Assembly (NCBI GenBank): GCA_963833985.1
Contig: CAWIAD010000002.1
Location: 1,792,001-1,856,000, forward strand
Length of the DNA stretch: 64,000 nucleotides
Source of the DNA: an uncultured Planctomycetaceae bacterium
GTDB lineage: Bacteria; Planctomycetota; Planctomycetia; Isosphaerales; Isosphaeraceae
Direction: 5' to 3'
Under the pieces are notes generated by a model, which did not search any database, was not told where the DNA came from, and was given only the letters and a program-made list of their open reading frames with translations. How positions within the stretch are numbered: position 1 is the stretch's first letter; the number at the start of each line of letters is the position of its first letter. The translations under genes were made by a program, and so were the position numbers. Below are positions 32,969 through 45,870 of this stretch, one piece after another.

Positions 32969-33914
32969 GGTTGCGAGGTCCGGCCGGGGTGTGTTCCGGG
33001 CGGAAAGCCCCGGCGGCTTCACGCTTCTCGAGTTGCTCGTCGTGCTGATCATCATTGGCGTGCTGGTCGGCCTGCTGCTGCCGGCCCTGAACAGTGCGCG
33101 CGAGGCCGCCCGCCGCGTGCAGTGCGAGAACAACCTGATGCAGCTTGGCCTGGCGCTCCAGCACTATGCCTCGGATCACCGTGTGCTTCCGCCCGGCGTG
33201 GTCCAGGAGACCGGGCCGATCGCCACCGGTCCATCCGGGTATCACTATAGCTGGATCGTGCAACTGCTTCCGTACCTGGACCAGCGGGAACTTTTTCACC
33301 GGGTCGACTTCCGGACCAGCGCCTATGATCCGGCCAACGACACGGTGCGGCAGACCTCCCTCGGCGTGTTGCACTGCCCCGATGACGACTCCGGCCGGCG
33401 TAATCCTTCCACGGGCGCGACGCTGACAAATTACGCGGGATGCCATCACGAGGTCGAGGCGCCCATTGACGCGGATAACCACGGCGTGTTTTTCCTGAAC
33501 AGTCATGTGGCGCTGGGCGACGTCTCCGACGGCCTCTCCTGCACGATCTTCCTGGGCGAGGTGGCACGGGCGCATCCGCTCGGCTGGTTCTCGGGCACCC
33601 GGGCAACATTGCGGAACACGGGCCACCCGATCAACGGGCTCGATATGACTGCGGCCAACGCACCTTTCTCCGGCACGTCTCCCCTGGGGTCCGACCTGGA
33701 GCCTGGCGAAATCGACGACATGATCGATTCGGGAACGCTCAAGATCGGCCCGCTCTTCGTCGGCGGTTTCGGCAGCGATCATGGCCGCGACGGCGCGAAT
33801 TTTGCCCTCGGCGACGGCTCGGTCCGGTTCGTGAGGGCGAGCATCGACCAGACTGCCTACCGCCGCCTGGGGCACCGTTGTGATGGAGAGCTCATCGATG
33901 ACGAACAGTTCTGA
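32949..33914 (+). CDS. DUF1559 prepilin-like protein 3
   Basis: [30 protein letters not shown] and [15 protein letters not shown]. Confidence 0.93.
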
Positions 33915-33927
33915 GAACCCGCTGCCC

Positions 33928-34840
33928 ATGCGCGGCAGCCGCGGCAGCAAGGGGACGGATCCGAGGTGCCGGCGCGGTTTCACGCTCATCGAGCTGCTGC
34001 TGGTCATCGGCATCATCGCGGTGTTGATATCGCTGCTGTTGCCGGCGATCCAGGCTGCACGCGAGAACGCCCGGCGCGTGCAATGCCAGAAGAACCTCGG
34101 CCAGATCGGCCTCGCCCTGGCTCAGTACGCGTCGAGCCACCGGGTCTTTCCGCCGGGCGTGGTCGACGAAAAGGGCCCGATCTCGAACCTGCCGGTGGGC
34201 TACCACTACGGCTGGGCGGCACAGATCTTGCCCGAGCTGGAGGCCCCGGCCATCTACCATGAGCTCAACTTCGCCCTCAGCGTCTACGATGAGAGTAACG
34301 ACACCGCGCGGGCACCGCATCAGCGCGTTCCTCTGCCCCTCGGATAGCAGCCCCGGCCTGATGAGCTACGCCGCATGCCACCACGACGTCGAGGCACCCA
34401 TCGACACCACCAATCAGGGCGTCTTCTTCCTGAACAGCCGGGTATCCAGAGACGAGCTCAGCGACGGCCCGGCGTTCACCATCCTGGTGGGCGAAATGCA
34501 CGGCAACGGCCCTAGCCTGGGCTGGGCGGTCGGCACCATGTCGTCGCTGCGAAACGCGGGGACGGCCATCAACGACGACGCTCGCGTCGTGCCGCCTGGC
34601 ACTCCCGGCCGGTTTCCGATCGGTCTCCAGACCGGCATTGCCGAGTTCCAGACCGTGGTCGAGAGCGGGGCGCTACCGGCTGGGTACGTCGGCGGCTTCT
34701 CCAGCAGGCACCGGGGAGGGGCGAACTTTGTTTTCGCCGATGGCTCGGTCCGCTTCGAGAGCCAGAAGATCAACATGTCCGTCTACCGATCGCTGGCGAA
34801 TCGCCATGATGGCAACCTGATCAGCGCCGATGACTATTGA
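33928..34840 (+). CDS. DUF1559 prepilin-like protein 4; frameshift near 34310
   Basis: [12 protein letters not shown] in ORF 33880..34347; FLCPSD and [14 protein letters not shown] in ORF 34259..34840. Confidence 0.9.
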
Positions 34841-34854
34841 GGGCTGAATCAGCC

Positions 34855-35214
34855 CCGATACCGTTGAGATAGCGGTAAGTTGAGTGTGGGTAGAGGTTTG
34901 CCCCTCGTTCCCACGCCGAGCGTGGGAACAAGTCTCTCACAAATCTCTTAAATGATTCATATGCTTGTCCCTCGTTCCCACGCTCCGCGTGGGAATGCCG
35001 TCTGCGACGCTCCGCGTCGATCGGGGCCCGTGCGGAGGCTGGGAAATCCATGGGACGCAGCGTGTCCTCACCGGTGTTCCCACGCTCGGCGTGGGAACAA
35101 GTCTCTCACAAATTATTAATTATTACATATGTATATTCATGGTTTCCACGCTCTGCGTGGGAACAAGTCCGCCGCAAACCTCTTGCCTGGTCAGGGCTAT
35201 TTCAACGGTATTGG
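34855..35214. mobile_element. Non-coding MITE/REPIN-like element, copy 1 (19-bp TIRs, four REP palindromes)
   Basis: CCGATACCGTTGAGATAGC (34855-34873) versus GCTATTTCAACGGTATTGG (35196-35214), 17/19 inverted match; GTTCCCACGC-N3-GCGTGGGAA palindromes at 34907, 34974, 35076 and 35142. Confidence 0.8.
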
Positions 35215-35234: not shown

Positions 35235-38200
35235 CTATTCCGCTCCAAGCACGGCCGCCAGGGCCTTGAGGCCTTGAGGGTCCCGGAAGTAGCTCAGGTG
35301 ATCGCAGGCAACGGGATGGACCTGGAACGAGGCTTTCCATCCGTCCGGGACGTTCTCCATGCTGGCCACGGAGACGGCGATGTCGTTTTCCTGGCTGAAG
35401 AAGAATGCGTTTGCAACCTGGTGCAGGAGCTCGGGCGATCGCAGCCGCGCAAGCAGCCGCGTGAACAGAGCCCGGGCGCCTTCGGCCGGTTGCTGGGGCA
35501 CCTGCTTGATCATCGACGTGTTGCCTGCCAGCAGGACATAGGGAATGCCCGGGTCTGCGCCCTGCTTCAGGGCTTGCAAGACCCCGGACGTGGGCAGCAT
35601 CTCGTTCAGCGCGACGGTGGGGTTCTCGATCCAGGCAGCCAGGCCGCCAACGATCGACGCCGGCCAGGCGATGGCGGTGAGGTGGTTCAAACCGAGCGTC
35701 AGCGCAAGCGTGGCCCAGTCAAAGACCTGGGGCCAGGGTGAACCGCCGTTGGGCGTGCCCAGCATGACCAGCCGGCGCACGACATGGTTGCCCCCTTCTT
35801 GCTCGATGAACCAGCGCGCGACCAGACCGCCCATCGAGTGTGCGACGACGTCGACCACCTTGCCGTGCCCGGGCGCAGTCCCACGGCCTCCAGCCGCTCT
35901 TTCAGGAGCCGGCCATTCTCCTCGATGCGGGTATTCAGGTTCTCGTAGTCGAAGGTCAAGACCAGGTCATACAGGCTGGCCAGGGGCCAGTTGTCGGCGC
36001 TCCGGGCAAGCTGGAGGCCTGGCACCATGCTCGAGGTGTCGTCGATGATTCCGTGCACCAGGACCACGATGCGCCCGGCCTGTGCGACCCGGTTGCGGAC
36101 CTCGATATGATCGCGCACGGAGCTGACGGTTCCGTCAGCCGCCACGTCCGCGGCCGCCAGGATCGGGTACGGGAACTCCAGGTGAACCGCCTTGCTGACG
36201 ACCTTCTGGAAGAAGATCTTGATGGCTCCGCCGAGAGTCCGGCTATCGACAAAAGGATCAGGAAGCCGGTCCAGGGCAATGGTGGTCCGGCCTTCGGACC
36301 GGCTTTCCACGCGGCCCAGGGGCAGGAAGAACTCGCCGTCGTACGCAACCGGCAGGACATGCTCGTGCGGCAGCAGGGCGACGGGGACGTCCAGCCGCAA
36401 GGGTGCCTCGCGCGTCACGAGCGCGGGGTTCTTCACCTCGGAGAGTTCCAGCACGCTCAGCCCCACTTCAAGGCCCCGGCTGGGGGAAAGGAGCAGGGGC
36501 TGGCTCAGCTCCGGGTCGTCATAGAGCAGCCTCGGCAGCCGGACATGGCCCAGGTCGCGCGTGGCCAGGGAAGCAGTGGCCAGCCGGGCTGTGGCCTCGA
36601 GTGCGGGGTGCGGTTGCAGGATCACGCCGGGCGCCAGTTCGACCGCCGGCTGGCTGGCCATCGGAACGGCCCTGCCGTCGAGCGGGCGGACCGTGGTGAA
36701 CGCCAGCTCGGCGGCCTGCCAGTCGTCGATGGACGCGGGCGCGCCGGTGCCGAAGTCGCGGGTCTGCACCTTTCTCATAAGGTGCTCCAGCGAGCCGCCC
36801 CTGCCGCTTCCCCGCATGCCGCCGCCGGCTGCGCGGGCGCGGCATGTCCAGCCGCGGCTGCTCCAGCAGCCTGGGGTCGAACTCCTCCGTGCAAACGATC
36901 AGTTTGAGCAGGTCCTTGTATTCGATCACTCCCTGCTTCCAGAGCTCGTCCGGCACGTTCGCCGTGATCGGCTGGCCGTCGTTCGCCCAGGCCGTCTCGC
37001 CCGGCTCCAGCTTCACGCACCCGGACCGGATCAGCCCGGCGGATACCTGGAACCGCTGGGTCAGGTCCAGCAAGCCGCAGAAGAGCCTGCGATTGCTGGT
37101 GTTGGTCAGGCTCACCTGGAACCCGGGCTCGACCGTTTTGCCTTTCTTGACCTGGTATTCCAGGCGGATCTCGCTGCCGGCAACCTCCTTGCCGTCGACG
37201 AGCACGCTCAGCTTGATGGCGCCCGGCTCGATGGTGGTGGCGGGATTGGCAAGCCGAGCGGTCTGGTTCCAGCGGGCCATGTGCTCCAGCCGTTCCACGG
37301 TCTGTTTCGCCCCGGCCGCGTCCAGGCCGTCTATCTGTGCCACCAGCGGGCGGTCCTGGTCCGGCCGGGTGATGGTGTACTGACTGTCGCGCACGAGCAC
37401 GCGGAACTCCGCGGCGCTCGTCTCCTTGGCCTCGATGATGAAGAGCGACGGCTTGCCCTCCGGCGACGAGGTCGCGATGGCGTGGCGGACCAGCGCGCAG
37501 TCCGCGGCCTGTCCTTCCAGCACGACTCCCAGCGGTGGCACGGGCAGGCTGATGATCACGGCCTTGTACGTGTTTTGGGGATCGAGCGCCGTGGCTTGCT
37601 CGACGGCCAGCCGGCTTGTCGTGGGCAGGACCTCGGCCACGTGAGCCATCGCCAGCGCTCGGGACGGGTCGGCGAGGTCGGCGGCCGGCGCATCAAACGC
37701 GTACAGCGCCACCCGGGCGGCGTCGGCACCAGAAGGCGCCGGAATGCCGCTGGCCGCGCCGGCGCTCAGCACCCAGCGCGACCCCATGAGCTGCACCGGG
37801 ATTGCGGCCGGTGCCGGCCGGATGAGTCCGTCCAGGAACGTGGCGTCGAGGTCCTCGTTCCACGCGGTCTCGAGCTGGGCCGACTGGTCGCTCACCTGCG
37901 TGGCAAGCAGGGCCGACGTGCGTGTGAACAGGTCGCGATAGGTGGGAACGCCCGATGCGCTGCGGAGTGACTGGCCCAGGAAGAAGGAAAAGGCCCCGCG
38001 ATGCTTGCCGTCTCCCGAGTATTCCTTGGCCTCCTGGTCATCGCGGCAGGCTGCCATCAGCACGTGCCGTCCCGCGGGAGGCATGTCCCAGCCTCTCTTT
38101 TTGTTGCCGGTGCTGCGCGTGGCAGCCGCCTGGGCTTCATCCGCCGTGACCAGAAAGGTCTCGATGGGTCGCTGGCGGAGATCGGTGGGAGCGCGGCGGA

Positions 38201-38681
38201 CCACGGTATCGCTGCCGCGCGTGCCGGATCCGGAGTGGCAGCAATCAAGGATCACGGCGACGTGCGGCCCGTTTGCCGCCACCTGGCCGATCAGCTTGGC
38301 GAGCTCCTTGTCGGCCAGGTCCCAGCTTCCGGGCTCGCGGCTGTCGTAGAGCACGAGCGTCTCGTCGAGATGGTCCGGCTCGATCGTCCAGAACTGTTCG
38401 GGCGCCGGCTCCTGCGAGCCGTGGCCGCTGTAATACAGAAGAGCGACGTCGCCGCCCGCCGCCTGGCCCAGGTGCTCCTGGAACGCCGCGACCACCGCCT
38501 TGCGGGTGGCCTCGCCATTCTTCAGCGTCCTGGCCTCCAGCCGGACCATCTTGTCGCCAGCAACACGCTCCTGGAGATAGGCCGAGATGGCGTCGATGTC
38601 GTTGACGCAGCCCTGAAGCCTCGGTATCGGAGCGGGATAATCATCGATGCCAATCAGCAAGGCGAAGATGGTGCGGGCCAT
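35235..38681 (-). CDS. Caspase-like (peptidase C14) protease fused to a C-terminal alpha/beta-hydrolase; frameshifts near 36830 and 35875
   Basis: ALLIGIDDY, LQGCVND, YYSGHGS and ILDCCHSG (His/Cys dyad); then LVHG, VVAHSMGGL, LGTPNGGS, NDIAV and DHLSYF (Ser-Asp-His) across ORFs 36519..38681, 35699..36817 and 35235..35858. Confidence 0.88.
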
Positions 38682-38725
38682 GCGATGGTCTCCTGAAGAA
38701 CTGGCTGTCCGGTCACCGGGCGAAG

Positions 38726-39940
38726 TCAGGGTCCCTGCGAGGGGAGAGTGATGCTCCCATTCTGCTGGGTGTTCGTTCCGGCGTCGATGAAATCGACGGT
38801 CGTTTGATCAAAATGGTTGGCCACGTCGCCCGGGTTGGTGAAGCGCTGGCCGTCGAGGGCGAAGATGATGTCGCCGGCGTCGAGCGGCAGTTGCGACGCG
38901 GGCGAGCCGGGCAGGGGGGCTCTGGTGAGCTTGAGCCCGACCGTGCCGTCGCCGAATCGGATCGGGACGTAGACGACGCCCAGGTTCGCCGCCACCAGCG
39001 AGCCGGGCCCGCCCGCTGAGGGCTGCGGTCCCGGCTGCGGCCCGTTGCCGGCGTTCGCTAGCTGCCCGAACTGGTTCGTCCCATTCATCGCCATCGGGGC
39101 CGGGGCGTACCTGGGCGGGGTTCGACCGGTGTCAGACGCGGAAGGGAGAGTGATGTTGCCGCGCTGCACGGTGTTGGTGGCCGCGTTGATGAAATCGACG
39201 GTCGTTTGATCGAAATGGTTGGCGACGTCGCCCGGGTTGGTGAAGCGCTGGCCGTCGAGGGCGAGGATGATGTCGCCGGTATCCAGCGGCAGTTGCGATG
39301 CCGGCGAGCCGGGCAGGGGGGCTCTTGCGAGCCTGAGCCCGATGGTGCCGTCCCCAAGCTGTATGGGCACGTAAACGATGCCGAGGTTTCTTGCCGTCAT
39401 CGGCCTGGGGCCGCCTTGCGCGATTCCCGGTTGCGCGGACATCGGGCCCGCTCCCATGTTTTGCTGGCCCCACTGATTCACTCCATTCATCACCATCGGG
39501 GCGTTCGGCTGTCCTCCGGGAGTCGGTTGCAATGGGTTGGCGGGTGGTTGCGGTACGCCGTTCGCTGACGGCAGCATGATGTTGCCGCGATGCAGTGTGT
39601 TGGTCCGCGCAGCGACGAAGTCAACGGTGGTCTGATCGAAATGGCTGGCGACGTCGCCGGGGTTGGCGAAGCGCTGGCCGTCGAGGGCGAAGATGATGTC
39701 ACCGGCGTCGAGCGGCAGTTGCGACGCGGGCGAGCCGGGCAGGGGAGGCCGGGTCAACCTGAGACCCATCGTGCCGTCCTGAAAGCCGATTGGTATGTAA
39801 ACAACGCCCAGGTTGGCCGCCAGCAGGGGCTGCGGGGCCATGGGGGCGGGCACCGGCGCAGGGCCCTGGCCGAAAGCCGGCCAGCAGGGGCCGGCGGCGA
39901 TGCATGTTGCGACGAGTGCCATCCTGGTGAACTGGTTCAT
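38726..39940 (-). CDS. Secreted protein with three near-identical PDZ-like repeats
   Basis: Signal peptide; three ~85-aa repeats NLG.VY.PI...GL.L.R.PLPGSPASQLPLD.GDII.ALDGQRF.NPGDVA.HFDQTTVDF separated by P/Q/G/M-rich linkers. Confidence 0.8.
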   Translation of the reverse strand: MNQFTRMALVATCIAAGPCWPAFGQGPAPVPAPMAPQPLLAANLGVVYIPIGFQDGTMGLRLTRPPLPGSPASQLPLDAGDIIFALDGQRFANPGDVASHFDQTTVDFVAARTNTLHRGNIMLPSANGVPQPPANPLQPTPGGQPNAPMVMNGVNQWGQQNMGAGPMSAQPGIAQGGPRPMTARNLGIVYVPIQLGDGTIGLRLARAPLPGSPASQLPLDTGDIILALDGQRFTNPGDVANHFDQTTVDFINAATNTVQRGNITLPSASDTGRTPPRYAPAPMAMNGTNQFGQLANAGNGPQPGPQPSAGGPGSLVAANLGVVYVPIRFGDGTVGLKLTRAPLPGSPASQLPLDAGDIIFALDGQRFTNPGDVANHFDQTTVDFIDAGTNTQQNGSITLPSQGP

Positions 39941-40051
39941 GATCTGGTCCTTCGGGTGCGGGTGAAAAGCGACGATGGGAACCTGGTTGTGACTGCGTCA
40001 GCTCTGTCGCCAGAATCCTGTCCCGGTTCCTGCCGGCCTCCTCGGCCGCGT

Positions 40052-43000
40052 TCAACCAGGCTTTGGGGGGTAAGTTCGGACGATGCGAAACCCGACGGCG
40101 GTCCAGCGGCTGGTCGGCCGGGTGGCATCCCGGTAGGCGGCCCTCAGGTTCAAGGCGAGCTCACCGAAGGACCCGCCGCGGTAGACCCGGCTGTCCACGT
40201 CCAGGACTGTCCGGTCGGTGCGCTCGCTCCCGAGGTCATCGACGGGCGGGCCGTCTGTTGCCGGGTAGGTCGGTCTGCGATCGGAGCACCACTCGTTGAC
40301 GTTTCCGTGCATGTCGAAAAGCCCGAACGCATTCGGCTTCTTCTGGCCGCCCTCCTGAGCCTGCTGCCGCAGGTTCTTCGTGATGGAGTTATCGAGGAAC
40401 CATGCAAAATCCTTCATGAGCGCGCTGTCGGACCCGAAGGCCCAGGGCGTTTCCGCCCCCGCGCGGCAGGCGTATTCCCACTCGGCCTCGGTGGGGAGCC
40501 GGTATCCCGTGCGGGTCAGGTGGTCGGCGAATAGCTCCATGCCCTCCTTGATCCGGGGGATCGGGGGGTAACATTGCTCCTTCTCCGGCAGACCTTCCTG
40601 CTCACCGAGCCAGCGGCAGTACTGGGCGGCCTCGAACCAGGTCACCGACAGGATCGGCCCTGTCCGCCGGGGGCTATAGCTTTGCAGGTCGGCATATACA
40701 AAATTCGCCTTCGCTTCTTGCGCGGCTGGATCGTCCAGGAACCTGAGGTAGTCGGCAACGGTCACCTCGCGCGTGCCGATGGCGAAGGAACGAGGGATGC
40801 GCCGGTGGTGTTGCCGTTCGTTCGGGTTCCGGCCCAGCTCGTTTTCCTCGTCGGGTGAACCCATGACGAAGACGCCGGGGTTCTTGACGATGACGAAGGT
40901 CTGGCCTTGCTTGTTGACGTACCACGCCTGCCTCGGGCCGGGCGGCTTGCCGGCCAGCGACTCATCCACGGCCACTCCGTCAAAGCAGAGCAGGTTCGGC
41001 AGCAGCCAGGCCAGCGCGGAGTGGAACCCCGGCTCCGGGTCGTGAGCGTAGGCGTCGAGCAGCTTCGCCGTCAGCGTGCGGTTCATCTCACCGGTCCGTA
41101 GCTCGTAGGGAAACTCGCCCAGAGCCAGCACGATGGCCGCGCGGATCGATGGCTCCTGCTCCTCGAACAGGTGACTGGCAAGGAGCTTGAAATCCACGCC
41201 CAGGCGCCCCATGCGTTCGATCAGGTACGTGCGCAGGCGCGGTTCCGGGCTCTGTCTCAGGGCGGGCCAGAGCCGGTCAGTCTGGCCCAGCATGGCGAGA
41301 GTGATCAGGGCATTGGCTTGCCGGCCCGCCAGTTCATCTTTCTGCTTGTAGATGCTTTTCAGCGGGGCCTTCTTGCCCAGCTCGTTCTTCATGGACCGGA
41401 CGGCCGCCCCGGGGTGATCCCTGGCCTTCGCGAACACGATGGGGAACTGGCGGGCGTCGGCCTGCTTGAGCAAATCGAAGGCGACCTCGTCGGTCATCGA
41501 CCGCACGGCTTCCTCGGGGTTGGCACGGGCCCTGGAGAAGAGGATCCGGAATTGCTGGGTGTCGGCATTCTTCAGCAAGGTGAGGATCTTGACGATATCG
41601 TCGGCGGCGTAATCGTTCAGGATCGTGGCCGCGACCTCCCGTTCGTGCGGTTGTCCCTCGTTGAACTTCACCTCCAGTGAGGGGATGAGCTGCTTCTTGA
41701 CGAGGCGGAACGCGTCGGTCCAGCCGCCGAGCTGAAGGGCGTTGACCGCGAGGACGTCGGCGACGACGCGCTCGGCCACCTGCCCCCAGCGCGTGTCTTG
41801 ATCGCTGAAGGCGGCAACCACCGCGGCATGGCGCAGGCGGAGCTCCGGGACGCTCTTGGTGTTCTTCACCGTCTGCCACAAGCGCTCGACAGTCTCTTGC
41901 GACAGGTAGGGACGCAGGTAATCCCGGACGAGCAGCAGCTCTTCGGGGTCGGAGTCGGCTGTGAGCACCTGCTGGAGCAAGAAATCGACCTCCGCGGGGT
42001 CCCTGTCCAGCAGGGCCAGGGCCGCCCGGCCTCTTTCCTTGGTGCTCGCTCCCTCTTTCGACCGCACGCCCCGCAGCCGGTCCATCGCTTCATCGCTCTC
42101 GCGCACGGACTTGAGGATGTCGGGCACGGCTTGAGGGTCGGCCTCGAGTAATTCCTCGGCCTGGGCGAGGGAGCGCACCTTCTTCTCGCTGGTGAGCTTG
42201 AGCAGGCTGTCGCTGAGATTGTTCCCCTTCGTACGGGCGTCGGACCATTCCATCGCCGCGATGCTCGCCACCAGCACCATGATCGCGGCCGCGGCACCCA
42301 GCAAGTAGGTCCCTTGCCGGAGACGGGTGTTGGTCTGTTTCTGCTTGAGATTGGCCTCCTCCAGGCGCTGGTTCGCCTCGAGCTGCTGCTCGTTGGCCGT
42401 CTGCTGTTCCGCCAGCCGGTGCTCGGCTTCCTGCCGGGCCTGGGCCTCTGCCTTCAGCCGCCCTTCCTCGGCCTCGTGCAATCGGCGGGCCTCCTCGGCT
42501 TCCTGGGTCTTGACGCGTTCGTCCTCATCCCGGCTTGCCATCACCAGGCGCTCTTCCACGCCGGTCCAGCCGCGCATTCCGGAAGCGCCTTCGAGGACCG
42601 TGGCCAGGTCCGCGCGGTCGAGACAGGGGCCGGTCTTGCCGTCAACCCAGTCGGGCACGCGGTTTTCCAGCAGGCGGCGCGCACGCTGACCGGGAGCGAC
42701 GGAGATCCGAAACCGTTGCTGAACCAGCGGCGCAAGCAGGTCGTGAGCCAGCCGTGTGGAGCGGGTGGTGGTCCCGGCCACCGGCTCGGCCTCCACGATG
42801 AGATAGTGGTCCTTACACTTGCCGAGCAGGCCGTCGAGCACCCCGGCCTGGTGGGCATAGCGCGCGTGGAGTGCCTCGCAGGTCTGCTGGGCGGCCGTGC
42901 CGAGATCGGTGGTATGGTACAGCAGCAAGTCAAGCGCCAGCCCTGAGTGCTCGACCTCGGGATTCCAGCGGCCGATGGCCTTCAGCCCCTCGTCGAGCAC

Positions 43001-44557
43001 GTCCTTGAGAAGGTAGCCCTCCGCCTTGAGAGATTCGTAGAGCGCGCGGTCGAAACGCGGCTGGCCCGGGTTTGCCTGGCGGGCCCTTTCCCACATCTTG
43101 GCGAGCAGGACCTGGAGCGTGGACGACAGCGCCGATCCGGCGTCGGCCAGCAAATCCTCGGCAATCACTGCGGGCAAGCCGTCCTCGATCTCCAGCCGGT
43201 ACTGCCGCTGGAGCCGGCCGGGCCGTGACGGGCCCTGGATCGCGCTGATGATGCCGCGCCGGTCGAGCGGCTTCAGGAACATCGGCGAGCGGGGAAGCCT
43301 CGCCTCGGCCAGCCGGCGGTCCAGCTCTGCCAGCCACTCCTTGCGAAACCCCAGCACCAGCTTGCCGCGCGGACGAAGCTCGCGATTGCCCAGCGTGGCC
43401 GCCAGCGCCGCCATGAACTCGTCAAGCTCGCGCGGCCGATCCGGGTCGGGCCGTGTGAACACCTCTTCCACCTGGTCCAGGAAGACCACCACGGGCCGGC
43501 CCGAGCTTGCCTCCGCGGACCGCCACGCCGCGTTCAGGGCGGTCAACTCGTCCGCGAGCCCGAGCGCATCGCCCAGCGAGCCCAGCAGGCCCTTCTTTTC
43601 ATCACGCCGGCGATAGCGAACCAGGCTGCCGCCGGTCTCCAGGCGCGGCACGAGCCCGGCGTCCAGCAGCGACGACTTGCCGACGCCCGATGTCCCGTAC
43701 AGCAGCAAGATCGGCGGCCCGGCCGGGTCAATGATCTCCTCGTACAATTCCCGGATCTGGTAGCCGCGACCGAAGAAGACCTCGGCATGCTCGGCCGTGA
43801 ACCAGTTCAGATGCCGGAACGGGCTCTCGGGCAGATCGCGCTCGGGCAGGCGTGGGAGGCCGAATTCCGGATGACCGGCCGCATCCGGCAAGCTCCAGCG
43901 CTCGACCAGCTCGGTCCCGGGCCGGAATTCCCACGGGAACCCGTGGTCGTCGGCCGGATCTGAGTTCGCCGTTTCCGCGGTCGTGCCGAAGTCGCGCTGC
44001 CCGTAATAGGCCTCGGGCACGGTGTCGTGGGCCGCCAGGACTCGTCCCCTTGCCCTTTCGAACGCGGCGCGGAGCGGGAATCCGGCGGCCAGCTCAGTAT
44101 AAAAGGCCACGGCGAAGGCGCGTGCCTTGCCATCGTCGATCGCGCGCGCCGTGGCGATCACGGCGGCGACGCCCGCCTGGAGCAGCCGCGCCACCTGGCC
44201 GCGGGTCGAGCAGCCGTTGAGAAAGACCAGTTGCAAACCGCCGCAGTGGCCCAGGAACGTTGCCAGCCCGTCCGCATGCGCCGGGGCTGCTCCCGCGTTC
44301 GATTCCAGCAGCAACCGGCCGCTGTCGGCATGCCCGGCGTAGTGCAGAATGGTGACCTGGTCACGGTTCAGGGTGAAGACGTCGAAGATCTGGTCCAGGG
44401 TCGCGTTGGAAAGCACTTCCAGGCGGCAGAGTCCGTCATGCTGCGCATCCTTGAGAATGCCTTGAAGCTGTCGCAGTTCCTCGGGCAAGTCCCTCAGGTA
44501 ACGCCGGCCCTCCTGCTCATTCGCAAAAGCCAGAACAACGATCGGCAGCTCTGCCAT
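40052..44557 (-). CDS. CHAT protease - STAND (nSTAND1-like) NTPase - coiled coil - TM - helical region - FGE/SUMF1 domain protein
   Basis: ILHYAGHA and VFLNGCST (CHAT dyad); Walker A GTSGVGKSS; Walker B VFLDQVEEVF; RLAHDLL; TM YLLGAAAAIMVLVASIAAM; RLPTEAEWEYACRAG, FGLFDMHGNVNEW, RGGSF and VGFR. Confidence 0.9.
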   Translation of the reverse strand: MAELPIVVLAFANEQEGRRYLRDLPEELRQLQGILKDAQHDGLCRLEVLSNATLDQIFDVFTLNRDQVTILHYAGHADSGRLLLESNAGAAPAHADGLATFLGHCGGLQLVFLNGCSTRGQVARLLQAGVAAVIATARAIDDGKARAFAVAFYTELAAGFPLRAAFERARGRVLAAHDTVPEAYYGQRDFGTTAETANSDPADDHGFPWEFRPGTELVERWSLPDAAGHPEFGLPRLPERDLPESPFRHLNWFTAEHAEVFFGRGYQIRELYEEIIDPAGPPILLLYGTSGVGKSSLLDAGLVPRLETGGSLVRYRRRDEKKGLLGSLGDALGLADELTALNAAWRSAEASSGRPVVVFLDQVEEVFTRPDPDRPRELDEFMAALAATLGNRELRPRGKLVLGFRKEWLAELDRRLAEARLPRSPMFLKPLDRRGIISAIQGPSRPGRLQRQYRLEIEDGLPAVIAEDLLADAGSALSSTLQVLLAKMWERARQANPGQPRFDRALYESLKAEGYLLKDVLDEGLKAIGRWNPEVEHSGLALDLLLYHTTDLGTAAQQTCEALHARYAHQAGVLDGLLGKCKDHYLIVEAEPVAGTTTRSTRLAHDLLAPLVQQRFRISVAPGQRARRLLENRVPDWVDGKTGPCLDRADLATVLEGASGMRGWTGVEERLVMASRDEDERVKTQEAEEARRLHEAEEGRLKAEAQARQEAEHRLAEQQTANEQQLEANQRLEEANLKQKQTNTRLRQGTYLLGAAAAIMVLVASIAAMEWSDARTKGNNLSDSLLKLTSEKKVRSLAQAEELLEADPQAVPDILKSVRESDEAMDRLRGVRSKEGASTKERGRAALALLDRDPAEVDFLLQQVLTADSDPEELLLVRDYLRPYLSQETVERLWQTVKNTKSVPELRLRHAAVVAAFSDQDTRWGQVAERVVADVLAVNALQLGGWTDAFRLVKKQLIPSLEVKFNEGQPHEREVAATILNDYAADDIVKILTLLKNADTQQFRILFSRARANPEEAVRSMTDEVAFDLLKQADARQFPIVFAKARDHPGAAVRSMKNELGKKAPLKSIYKQKDELAGRQANALITLAMLGQTDRLWPALRQSPEPRLRTYLIERMGRLGVDFKLLASHLFEEQEPSIRAAIVLALGEFPYELRTGEMNRTLTAKLLDAYAHDPEPGFHSALAWLLPNLLCFDGVAVDESLAGKPPGPRQAWYVNKQGQTFVIVKNPGVFVMGSPDEENELGRNPNERQHHRRIPRSFAIGTREVTVADYLRFLDDPAAQEAKANFVYADLQSYSPRRTGPILSVTWFEAAQYCRWLGEQEGLPEKEQCYPPIPRIKEGMELFADHLTRTGYRLPTEAEWEYACRAGAETPWAFGSDSALMKDFAWFLDNSITKNLRQQAQEGGQKKPNAFGLFDMHGNVNEWCSDRRPTYPATDGPPVDDLGSERTDRTVLDVDSRVYRGGSFGELALNLRAAYRDATRPTSRWTAVGFRIVRTYPPKPG

Positions 44558-44738
44558 ATTCCTGACCCCCGAGCCAGCCGGCCGGGAGCCCACGGCGGCA
44601 CGCTGGCGCATGGCAACATGAGAACGGGCGGCGACCGATGCGCCGCTGCCCCGCACGGACTCCGGCCGCCGTCGGGTTCACGCCGGTTCTCCAGGCCGTG
44701 CGTGACCACCGGCCGCCCTCGAAGCCCCTGCGCTGGCT

Positions 44739-44912
44739 TCACTGCTCAATGATCTCGATGTTCTCCTGAACCTCGCTGATGTTCTCCTGAACCTCGCTGA
44801 ACTGTTCGATAAACTCTTGTCCCTGGGGTGTATTGATCACCTCGACGTTCTCGGTTACCTGGGTGATCTGCTCTCTCACTTCGATGATCTCTTCTTCAAA
44901 GAATTCCGGCAT
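44739..44912 (-). CDS. 57-aa acidic E/Q/I/V-rich peptide with heptad repeats (absent from the ORF track)
   Basis: Manual translation MPEFFEEEIIEVREQITQVTENVEVINTPQGQEFIEQFSEVQENISEVQENIEIIEQ; GGAG 9 nt before the ATG; in-frame 21-bp tandem duplication at 44757-44798; GAAGCC/GGCTTC hairpin at the stop. Confidence 0.72.
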   Translation of the reverse strand: MPEFFEEEIIEVREQITQVTENVEVINTPQGQEFIEQFSEVQENISEVQENIEIIEQ

Positions 44913-45174
44913 GACGATATGCTCCGGCTCTCAAGTGGATGGCGGCGCGGAAAGTAGCCCTCCAAGGAATATCAGCGACTCCCTTCCCGGGCGAAATTCC
45001 TGCCGGAAGAATCTCGTGGAAGTGTACGTGCGTGATGGTTCGGCCTCTCCTTTTCACGGTTGCGCTGAAGGCGTCTTGCCCGTTCCGATGCGGGTGGTGG
45101 CTTGACTGACCTGGCTGCCGTAGCATGGTCGGGCCGTACGTCGTGAGCATCCATCTCCGTCTGCGCGAGTGAAC

Positions 45175-45870
45175 ATGATCAGGGTACCGATCAAGTCGAG
45201 GGAAGGCGTCTACCGCGTCATGCGGACGAGGGTGCCGCGCACCCGAACGTTTTTTCTGTACCGCCAGGCCGAGGCCAACGACAAAGCCTGGCTCCAGGCT
45301 CTTTACGCCGCCATCTGCAACCTGGTGCAAGCCCATCCCGAAGCAAGGTCGCATCGCGCCGTGGCGCTGATGGCGGAAGTTTCTGCCCAAGGATCCCGCG
45401 CAGCGCGAACACTCAAATTTTCGTTCTCCGATGCGAAGCAGCGCTCGCTCTTCGAACAGGTGCTCTGGACCTTCTTCTTCGACCAGCCCGACACCTGGGA
45501 AACCTCGTGGCCGGAACCGGGCCAGGACGACGCGGAATACGTCGCGGTACGCGCCGGCCGGATTGCGCAACATCCCGCGGATCCGCGTCAGATGGCCCCT
45601 GCCGCCCGTGCCGCCAAAGCGCGCAGCCGCGGGCTGGACGCGGCTCCGGCGGCTACGACAGCCGTGGCGTCCGACGATGAGCTGAAAATCGGGGATATCG
45701 TCAAGGTTGTCGAGGGCCGGTACACCGGCCTCATTGGCCAGGTGGTAGCCATCCCGGTCGTGGGAGGGTTCGAGCGCTATACGGTCCGGCTGCCCGGCGA
45801 CGACCAGTATTATGACGTGCCGAATTTTCCCGCCTTCGCGCTCGAGAAGGTTTCCGCACCGGCGCATTGA
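45175..45870 (+). CDS. Hypothetical protein with C-terminal KOW motif
   Basis: LKIGDIVKVVEGRYTGLIGQV matches the KOW consensus; Ala-rich linker; unrecognised N-terminal domain. Confidence 0.65.
   Translation: MIRVPIKSREGVYRVMRTRVPRTRTFFLYRQAEANDKAWLQALYAAICNLVQAHPEARSHRAVALMAEVSAQGSRAARTLKFSFSDAKQRSLFEQVLWTFFFDQPDTWETSWPEPGQDDAEYVAVRAGRIAQHPADPRQMAPAARAAKARSRGLDAAPAATTAVASDDELKIGDIVKVVEGRYTGLIGQVVAIPVVGGFERYTVRLPGDDQYYDVPNFPAFALEKVSAPAH

Follow-up and report, generated by a model that had tools for sequence, protein, structure and literature searches.

A recurrent two-gene module pairing a CHAT-nSTAND1 receptor with a caspase-lipase fusion in an Isosphaeraceae genome

STAND NTPases oligomerise upon ligand binding, and, to our knowledge, the characterised STAND defence receptors sense cytoplasmic phage proteins. 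In the SAVED-CHAT/PCaspase system, oligomerisation is reported to activate SAVED-CHAT, which specifically cleaves PCaspase, the pair causing abortive infection, and this cascade is tied to CRISPR signalling (10.1101/2023.06.23.546230). Kaur et al. (2021) described nSTAND1-FGS proteins with peptidase or kinase effectors (PMC8195603), and Kaur et al. (2020) reported the pairing of caspase and hydrolase in VMAP systems, together with membrane caspases carrying periplasmic-binding domains (PMC7159879). FGE and WD40 sensors are listed in a 2026 survey of STAND proteins (10.64898/2026.01.04.697583), and lectin-fold domains are treated as sensors by Dore (2024; PMC10907252). Here we describe a locus at positions 35235..44912 of the window, a 64,000-nucleotide stretch from an uncultured Planctomycetaceae bacterium, which lies on contig C2 of a 10.16 Mb genome in two contigs (G000; other G numbers denote comparison genomes, and L numbers the loci read). 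The DUF1559-like genes and the names attached to the nearest homologues suggest an Isosphaeraceae planctomycete. The core of the locus consists of two genes, encoding a receptor and a caspase-lipase fusion, which form a recurrent module made from known parts in an arrangement that we did not find described.

The initial annotation had proposed a system of four co-oriented genes. The minus strand carries all four open reading frames (ORFs) in the order it gave, namely a 57-aa ORF, the receptor, a triple-PDZ protein and the fusion, with intergenic gaps of 181, 111 and 44 bp. The four-gene system itself was not upheld, since the 57-aa ORF has a relative in only one of 120 other family genomes and is missing upstream in G086, which among the loci read is the only case of the PDZ gene in the same operon. 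Pfam searches on each protein bore out the claimed domains: CHAT (E 2e-15), nSTAND1 (2e-32), HEAT_2 (0.002) and FGE-sulfatase (2e-39) in the receptor, three PDZ_6 stretches (3e-17) in the PDZ protein, and Peptidase_C14 (4e-21) and DUF7379/PGAP1/Abhydrolase in the fusion. No close paralogue of the N-terminal half of the receptor, the PDZ protein, the caspase or the 57-aa peptide was found in G000.

The receptor (1501 aa, 40052..44557, minus strand) was delimited by Pfam, hydropathy and homologues as CHAT, nSTAND1, coiled coil, hydrophobic helix, HEAT-like repeats and a domain of the FGE/C-lectin fold, and its start was placed at the ATG common to homologues (the longest ORF begins at GTG 44656). 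With residues 1-660 as the query, 606 proteins matched at E<=1e-20 among 8000 candidates scored, and conservation was counted in the best 120 of these. The motifs that had been called intact are so: the His and Cys of the short CHAT protease domain (43868..44557; PF12770; dyad H76/C116) are each retained in 117/120 homologues, and the Walker A Lys (K294) and Walker B Asp (D361) of the nSTAND1 NTPase (42578..43822; PF20703) in 120/120. The CHAT domain alone matches 8692 cluster representatives at E<=0.001, and its sole significant match in the PDB is SAVED-CHAT 8TL0 (E 1.2e-9, residues 5-180, dyad aligned). The neighbouring CHAT of Acaryochloris likewise matches 8TL0 only, and a TPR-CHAT control matched 8ROT instead. 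On this sequence likeness, we assign the CHAT of the window to the SAVED-CHAT-type subfamily.

One strong hydrophobic segment is present in the receptor, at residues 751-769 (42251..42307; Kyte-Doolittle 2.25), an uncharged stretch of 19 residues with a basic cluster N-terminal to it in most relatives. Transmembrane and signal-peptide calls were made by hydropathy and inspection, and the segment is predicted to be a single transmembrane helix with its N-terminus inside and its C-terminus outside. The claimed membrane helix thus found support, as the helix after the NTPase scores at least 1.8 in 107/120 homologues vs 0/120 in a control stretch. The HEAT-like solenoid and FGE-fold domain beyond it (40076..42160; Pfam) form a predicted, swappable sensor, the FGE domain being closest in the PDB to TvpA (2Y3C) and PvdO (5HHA). 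By our own profiles, the C-terminal sensor of the best 120 receptors is WD40 in 66, FGE in 17 and neither in 37, some of the last being WD40, TPR or LRR by Pfam, and different sensors were found on receptors more than 80% identical over the N-terminal half. FGE is not a necessary part, most relatives having WD40 in its place. In addition, G000 holds four kinase-nSTAND1-(helix)-HEAT-FGE proteins, one TIR-nSTAND1-TPR and one CHAT-AAA-TPR (L191-L196), and because kinase, TIR and CHAT versions occur, one receptor chassis appears to accept interchangeable effectors. As for targeting of the FGE domain by a diversity-generating retroelement (DGR), a search of the whole of G000 gave no template repeat whose mismatches to the last 549 nt are confined to adenines. 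Reverse transcriptase matches in G000 number 24, none inside the window, and about nine of them are split by an insert of ~2 kb at the same model position.

The second core gene (35235..38681, minus strand; ~1150 aa, with two single-base indels in this assembly) encodes a C14 caspase, a middle region and an alpha/beta-hydrolase in one chain. As family query we used L039, an intact orthologue that shares 72% identity across the first 614 residues; of 8000 candidates scored, 1164 proteins matched at E<=1e-20. The best 120 are mostly 1140-1260 aa and annotated C14 and DUF7379, and the named organisms among them are Isosphaeraceae and cyanobacteria. The catalytic motifs of both enzymes, also claimed to be intact, are conserved in 109 full-length sequences (caspase His 108/109 and Cys 109/109; hydrolase Ser 107/109, Asp 109/109 and His 107/109). 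The metacaspase-like domain (37824..38681) has the C14 p20 fold, the dyad H87/C148 and an acidic specificity pocket of nearly invariant D28 and D146, and its position 155 is Arg, conserved as Arg or Lys in 109/109 fusions. Non-animal C14 proteases with such acidic pockets cleave after Arg or Lys (PMC5756287). In the AlphaFold model of the fusion (pLDDT 75.8, pTM 0.48), the caspase part has a metacaspase fold (3BIJ, Z 26.6, root-mean-square deviation (rmsd) 3.0, 245 aligned), and the hydrolase (35238..36103) is predicted to be of lipase type with a Ser-Asp-His triad (6WPX, Z 16.0, rmsd 4.8, 230 aligned).

The middle region (36104..37823; ~550 residues) has no Pfam match. Its model is confident (pTM 0.78 for the region folded as a whole) and consists of beta-barrel, alpha/beta, Ig-like and beta domains; a fold search gave no clear match (best 8Z5N, Z 8.8, 76 aligned, rmsd 2.4; weaker, an Ig-like sandwich with Z 7-8 and ZU5 with Z 6.6). 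The motif [ST]R[SDG] stands at seven loops of the fusion, five of them in the middle region, in 34, 73, 73, 57, 91, 101 and 49 of the 109 sequences (31-93%) vs 1.6% in 62 other windows, and six of the seven overlap low-confidence segments of the AlphaFold model. These loops are candidate cut sites. PCaspase (Hoch_1323) is reportedly cut seven residues past its catalytic Cys146, which would correspond to Arg155 here; this was not used as evidence. A complex prediction of CHAT (1-240) with the caspase and middle region (1-612) scored 0.00 and carries no weight either way, and a search of viral contigs returned only five short hydrolase-motif matches. On Haliscomenobacter plasmid pHALHY01 (L211 8768-22090), CHAT, MoxR, a 2048-aa protein, a caspase-WD40 gene and two NACHT genes stand together, and the 2048-aa protein has four FGE domains as well as a portion of the middle region (E 7e-15), which suggests that this region may be a shared adaptor.

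The fusion was found in 16/121 family genomes (three more matched the caspase domain only and were left out), a receptor of this type in 11/121 and both in eight. When G000 was excluded, 7/10 receptor genomes had the fusion vs 15/120 overall. Outside the family, it occurs in 1/400 genomes of the phylum and 2/401 genomes of the phylum of G145, a patchy distribution that includes plasmids. Linkage was tallied by hand in the surroundings of 26 other fusion loci, with a reach of ~10 kb. Dropped before the count were loci on contigs <6 kb (L039, L040, L157, L158, L034, L055, L057 and L061), the partial match L156, L166 (a copy without the hydrolase, followed by caspase-nSTAND1), 72 short hydrolase-only matches, and plasmid matches H6 and H8-H24; L054, truncated at its 5' end, was included. 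A second clan-CD protease was present at 17 loci (CHAT at 12) and a STAND NTPase at 12 (10 nSTAND1 and two NACHT-like), so that either partner was found at 20/26 loci, in planctomycetes, cyanobacteria, Chloroflexota, Rhizobium and Deinococcus. By comparison, a random site in G000 has a CHAT gene within this distance 1.3% of the time.

The arrangements are also telling. G086 repeats the three-gene order of the window intact; a CHAT-nSTAND1-helix-WD40 gene lies immediately upstream of the fusion at L035, and caspase-nSTAND1-WD40 upstream of it at L142 and L056; the order in Acaryochloris S15 (WP_212666882/881/880, with an intact pair) is fusion, CHAT, nSTAND1; caspase-TIR and TIR-STAND are near the fusion at L151; and a 3057-aa protein of a Nostoc plasmid (WP_104910174) is a single chain in which caspase-lipase and caspase-nSTAND1 are joined to a periplasmic-binding domain. 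Among the top 39 receptors, eight lie on a contig equal in length to that of one of the top 68 fusions (18-66 kb in five cases), from which we infer that the contigs are shared. Of the gene linkage that the initial annotation had expected, that between receptor and fusion recurs elsewhere, that of the PDZ gene was seen in G086 alone among the loci read, and the 57-aa peptide is not part of the core. The receptor and fusion genes very probably act together.

Some linked loci have further genes. In G090 (L146-L147), caspase-lipase and CHAT-NTPase are followed by an ORF of 2994 codons that encodes a P-loop, repeats, a peptidoglycan-binding domain and another caspase-lipase. In G077 (L152 609-7049), genes for a NACHT protein and a non-specific endonuclease converge on caspase-lipase. 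Protease-inhibitor genes adjoin module members, a serpin at L048 1115-2443 and an I42 inhibitor with a C1 peptidase at L165 6590-8504, and an alpha-2-macroglobulin gene does so at L062 4803-9671.

Compared with SAVED-CHAT/PCaspase, the window has, by sequence, the same CHAT subfamily with a His-Cys dyad, here fused to an oligomerising module, and the adjoining C14 caspase would by analogy be its likely substrate. In contrast to that system, the operon lacks a SAVED domain (by Pfam, nSTAND1 follows CHAT) as well as a sigma factor, a kinase and an inhibitor; a STAND NTPase with a predicted membrane helix would serve as the switch, and a lipase is fused to the caspase. We therefore regard the module as not a member of that system, and the likeness of the two cascades as a probable analogy. 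With nSTAND1-FGS proteins it shares an N-terminal effector, nSTAND1 and C-terminal FGS, as well as several copies per genome with different effectors; it differs in the predicted helix between NTPase and FGS and in the lack of a DGR template repeat in G000, and the available text on those proteins names no caspase-lipase partner (PMC8195603). In VMAP ternary systems a caspase-superfamily domain always has an adjoining hydrolase gene, and the EACC1 system has membrane-linked caspases with external periplasmic-binding domains (PMC7159879); a VMAP-type locus, that on the Haliscomenobacter plasmid, encodes a CHAT of this type together with a portion of the middle region. Unlike VMAP, caspase and hydrolase are here one polypeptide and the core includes a STAND receptor, and no MoxR or vWA domain was found by Pfam in the four operon genes or two upstream neighbours. 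The EACC1-system model NF047832 scored 50 bits against the caspase (cut-off 140), the gene upstream of the caspase being that of the PDZ protein, and no EACC1 gene was noted in the operon, on whose DNA no EACC1 profile was run. The layout of effector, STAND and sensor is that of Avs and other bacterial NLR-like STANDs (10.64898/2026.01.04.697583), and an Arg-specific caspase, here predicted, is also the executioner of type IV Thoeris (10.1101/2024.10.24.620036). Avs and type IV Thoeris respond to phage proteins in the cytoplasm or to a small molecule, unlike the receptor as proposed below.

The caspase-lipase fusion was not found in the available text of two caspase surveys (PMC8283722, PMC3501461). 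The annotation knew of no characterised system with this combination; no paper describing it was found, and the parts have computational precedent. The search lay mostly outside subscription journals, and the source data of PMC7159879 or the supplements of the 2026 STAND survey may cover the combination. In the PADLOC library dated 2023, which had been suggested as a check of whether the system is catalogued, only the generic 'caspase' model PDLC02987 was a strong match, and the receptor and PDZ protein were unmatched.

Considering these results, we propose a receptor-gated cascade from CHAT to caspase that would release the lipase, for defence or cell death, and give this reading a probability of roughly 45%. 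A ligand at the C-terminal HEAT-FGE sensor (elsewhere WD40, TPR or periplasmic-binding), probably outside the cytoplasm, would cluster the receptor. The STAND domain would then oligomerise and turn CHAT on, as filament formation does for SAVED-CHAT, and CHAT would cleave the fusion, most plausibly at Arg155 just past the catalytic Cys. The Arg-specific caspase might then cleave the remaining Arg loops, perhaps along with host proteins, and so set the lipase free, and membrane damage and proteolysis would kill or arrest the cell. The simplest reading is that CHAT and caspase act as initiator and executioner, the lipase being tethered cargo, because a STAND-gated CHAT of SAVED-CHAT type adjoins a caspase rich in Arg loops. 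Among its parts, activation of the fusion by CHAT is probable, a role in defence or cell death equally so, and an origin of the signal outside the cell is favoured on balance. A bolder version, which we consider rather unlikely, is a bacterial extrinsic death-receptor pathway leading from a transmembrane NLR through an initiator CHAT and executioner caspase to a released lipase. Its cues would arise outside the cytoplasm, such as phage adsorption, envelope damage, or predator or non-kin contact; its WD40, lectin-fold and periplasmic-binding sensors would be interchangeable; and it would be common to planctomycetes, cyanobacteria and other aggregating bacteria.

Several observations weigh against the proposed cascade, and they bear in part on other explanations. 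The seven Arg loops were picked by eye after the alignment had been viewed; the hypergeometric P of 1e-5 for co-occurrence is overstated, related genomes not being independent; and the CHAT background was measured in G000 alone. Cyanobacteria carry more CHAT genes. CHAT is not obligatory, since about half of the linked loci have a C14 caspase, TIR-STAND or TPR-CHAT as partner; G077, G024 and G007 carry a CHAT-nSTAND1 gene elsewhere in the genome; and among the other three receptor genomes, a convergent caspase that lacks the lipase adjoins the receptor in G005 and G074, and G101 has none. The window is not a defence island, because none of 28 other ORFs examined in it matched a PADLOC model (among 27 flanking ORFs of related loci there were five matches, mostly to generic kinase, helicase, NACHT, protease and TPR models). 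Together with the Ser/Thr kinases on the same chassis in the four G000 paralogues, this fits ordinary signalling or development, in which proteolysis set off by an envelope or contact cue would be limited, and the hydrolase would remodel lipids or deacylate proteins with no killing. The likeness of the hydrolase extends beyond lipases to PGAP1, LCAT and palmitoyl thioesterases, and the presence of a putatively secreted PDZ protein points to quality control in the envelope, given that HtrA-type proteins have PDZ domains. The patchy, plasmid-borne spread and sensor swapping are instead typical of conflict systems, the TIR-STAND of L151 has a caspase-TIR partner, and the two characterised bacterial analogues considered (SAVED-CHAT/PCaspase, and the caspase of type IV Thoeris) are reported as cell-death effectors; we consider signalling unlikely, if somewhat less so than the explanations that follow.

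The receptor could also be an intracellular NLR-like protein whose hydrophobic segment is a simple anchor or a coiled-coil helix buried within the protein, and whose sensor binds cytoplasmic phage proteins as Avs proteins do. The segment, called from hydropathy, is missing from 13/120 receptors and scores just 1.65 in the Nostoc fusion; FGS domains are regarded as intracellular sensors, often DGR-diversified (PMC8195603), and FGE-like and WD40 sensors occur among defence-associated STANDs (10.64898/2026.01.04.697583). Set against this are the uncharged nature of the segment with its preceding basic cluster, the periplasmic-binding domain in the sensor slot of the Nostoc protein, and the FGE-type receptor followed by a signal-peptide-like PDZ gene in two genera, which together leave this explanation doubtful. 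That independent conflict modules merely gather at the same sites, the caspase-lipase self-activating or having other triggers and not being a CHAT substrate, is quite improbable. Six of the 26 loci are partnerless (L033, L042, L032, L031, L059 and L060), partners and orientations vary (convergent or divergent at L148, L151, L154, L163 and L187), and orthocaspase MaOC1 is reported to autoprocess without an activator (PMC5756287); against it stand the close linkage in the same orientation that is seen in the window, G086, L035, L142 and Acaryochloris, the two fusions within a single chain (L164 and L147), and genome-level co-occurrence far over the base rate. Finally, the fusion gene of the window is itself frameshifted: set against intact orthologues, it has a surplus base near 36,828 and lacks one near 35,876, and so is spread over three frames. 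With two indels within 3.4 kb, and a frame break in just 5/81 DUF1559-like loci of G000, the effector of this strain could be a recent pseudogene and the locus inactive whatever the family does, which is unlikely. A likelier cause than gene decay is assembly error of the long-read kind, because frame breaks of the same sort are seen in a neighbouring DUF1559 gene and in two receptor paralogues; in addition, both indels are single-base and in GC-rich runs, with no in-frame stop accumulated and every catalytic residue retained.

The triple-PDZ protein (404 aa, 38726..39940, minus strand) has a signal-peptide-like N-terminus, and its relatives occur in 27/120 family genomes. The best match (44%), in the same position in G086, has a similar start, and the gene is predicted to be accessory and to encode an optional secreted partner. 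The acidic 57-aa ORF (44739..44912, minus strand, from the ORF list) contains a 21-nt tandem duplication and lies outside the core. Its one genome match, in G024, is an acidic repeat protein (L032 13962-14792), ~500 bp downstream of caspase-lipase, whose first 32 residues match it at 50%. A role as precursor or inhibitor was considered and set aside, as it had no protein match among longer proteins, and is a loose lead only. A promoter and terminator scan of the operon interior gave nothing informative. Just beyond the 3' end of the operon, at 34881-35179, are about five palindromic repeats, which we take to be like repetitive extragenic palindromic (REP) elements, flanked by 19-nt inverted repeats (34855-34873 and 35196-35214). 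Further on, at 33880-34840, lies a frameshifted DUF1559-like gene, the last in a tandem run of four. On the other side, a 233-aa ORF with a C-terminal KOW motif (45169-45870, plus strand) is divergent from the operon, with no paralogue in G000 and no match in the related loci scanned.

If the proposed cascade is true, the module would join a STAND receptor with a CHAT-to-caspase cascade and add a lipase effector, possibly with transmembrane signalling. It lends itself to direct testing, since intact gene pairs and candidate sites of cleavage are available. Furthermore, it offers a concrete role for more than 1000 unannotated 'caspase family proteins', including cyanobacterial ones.

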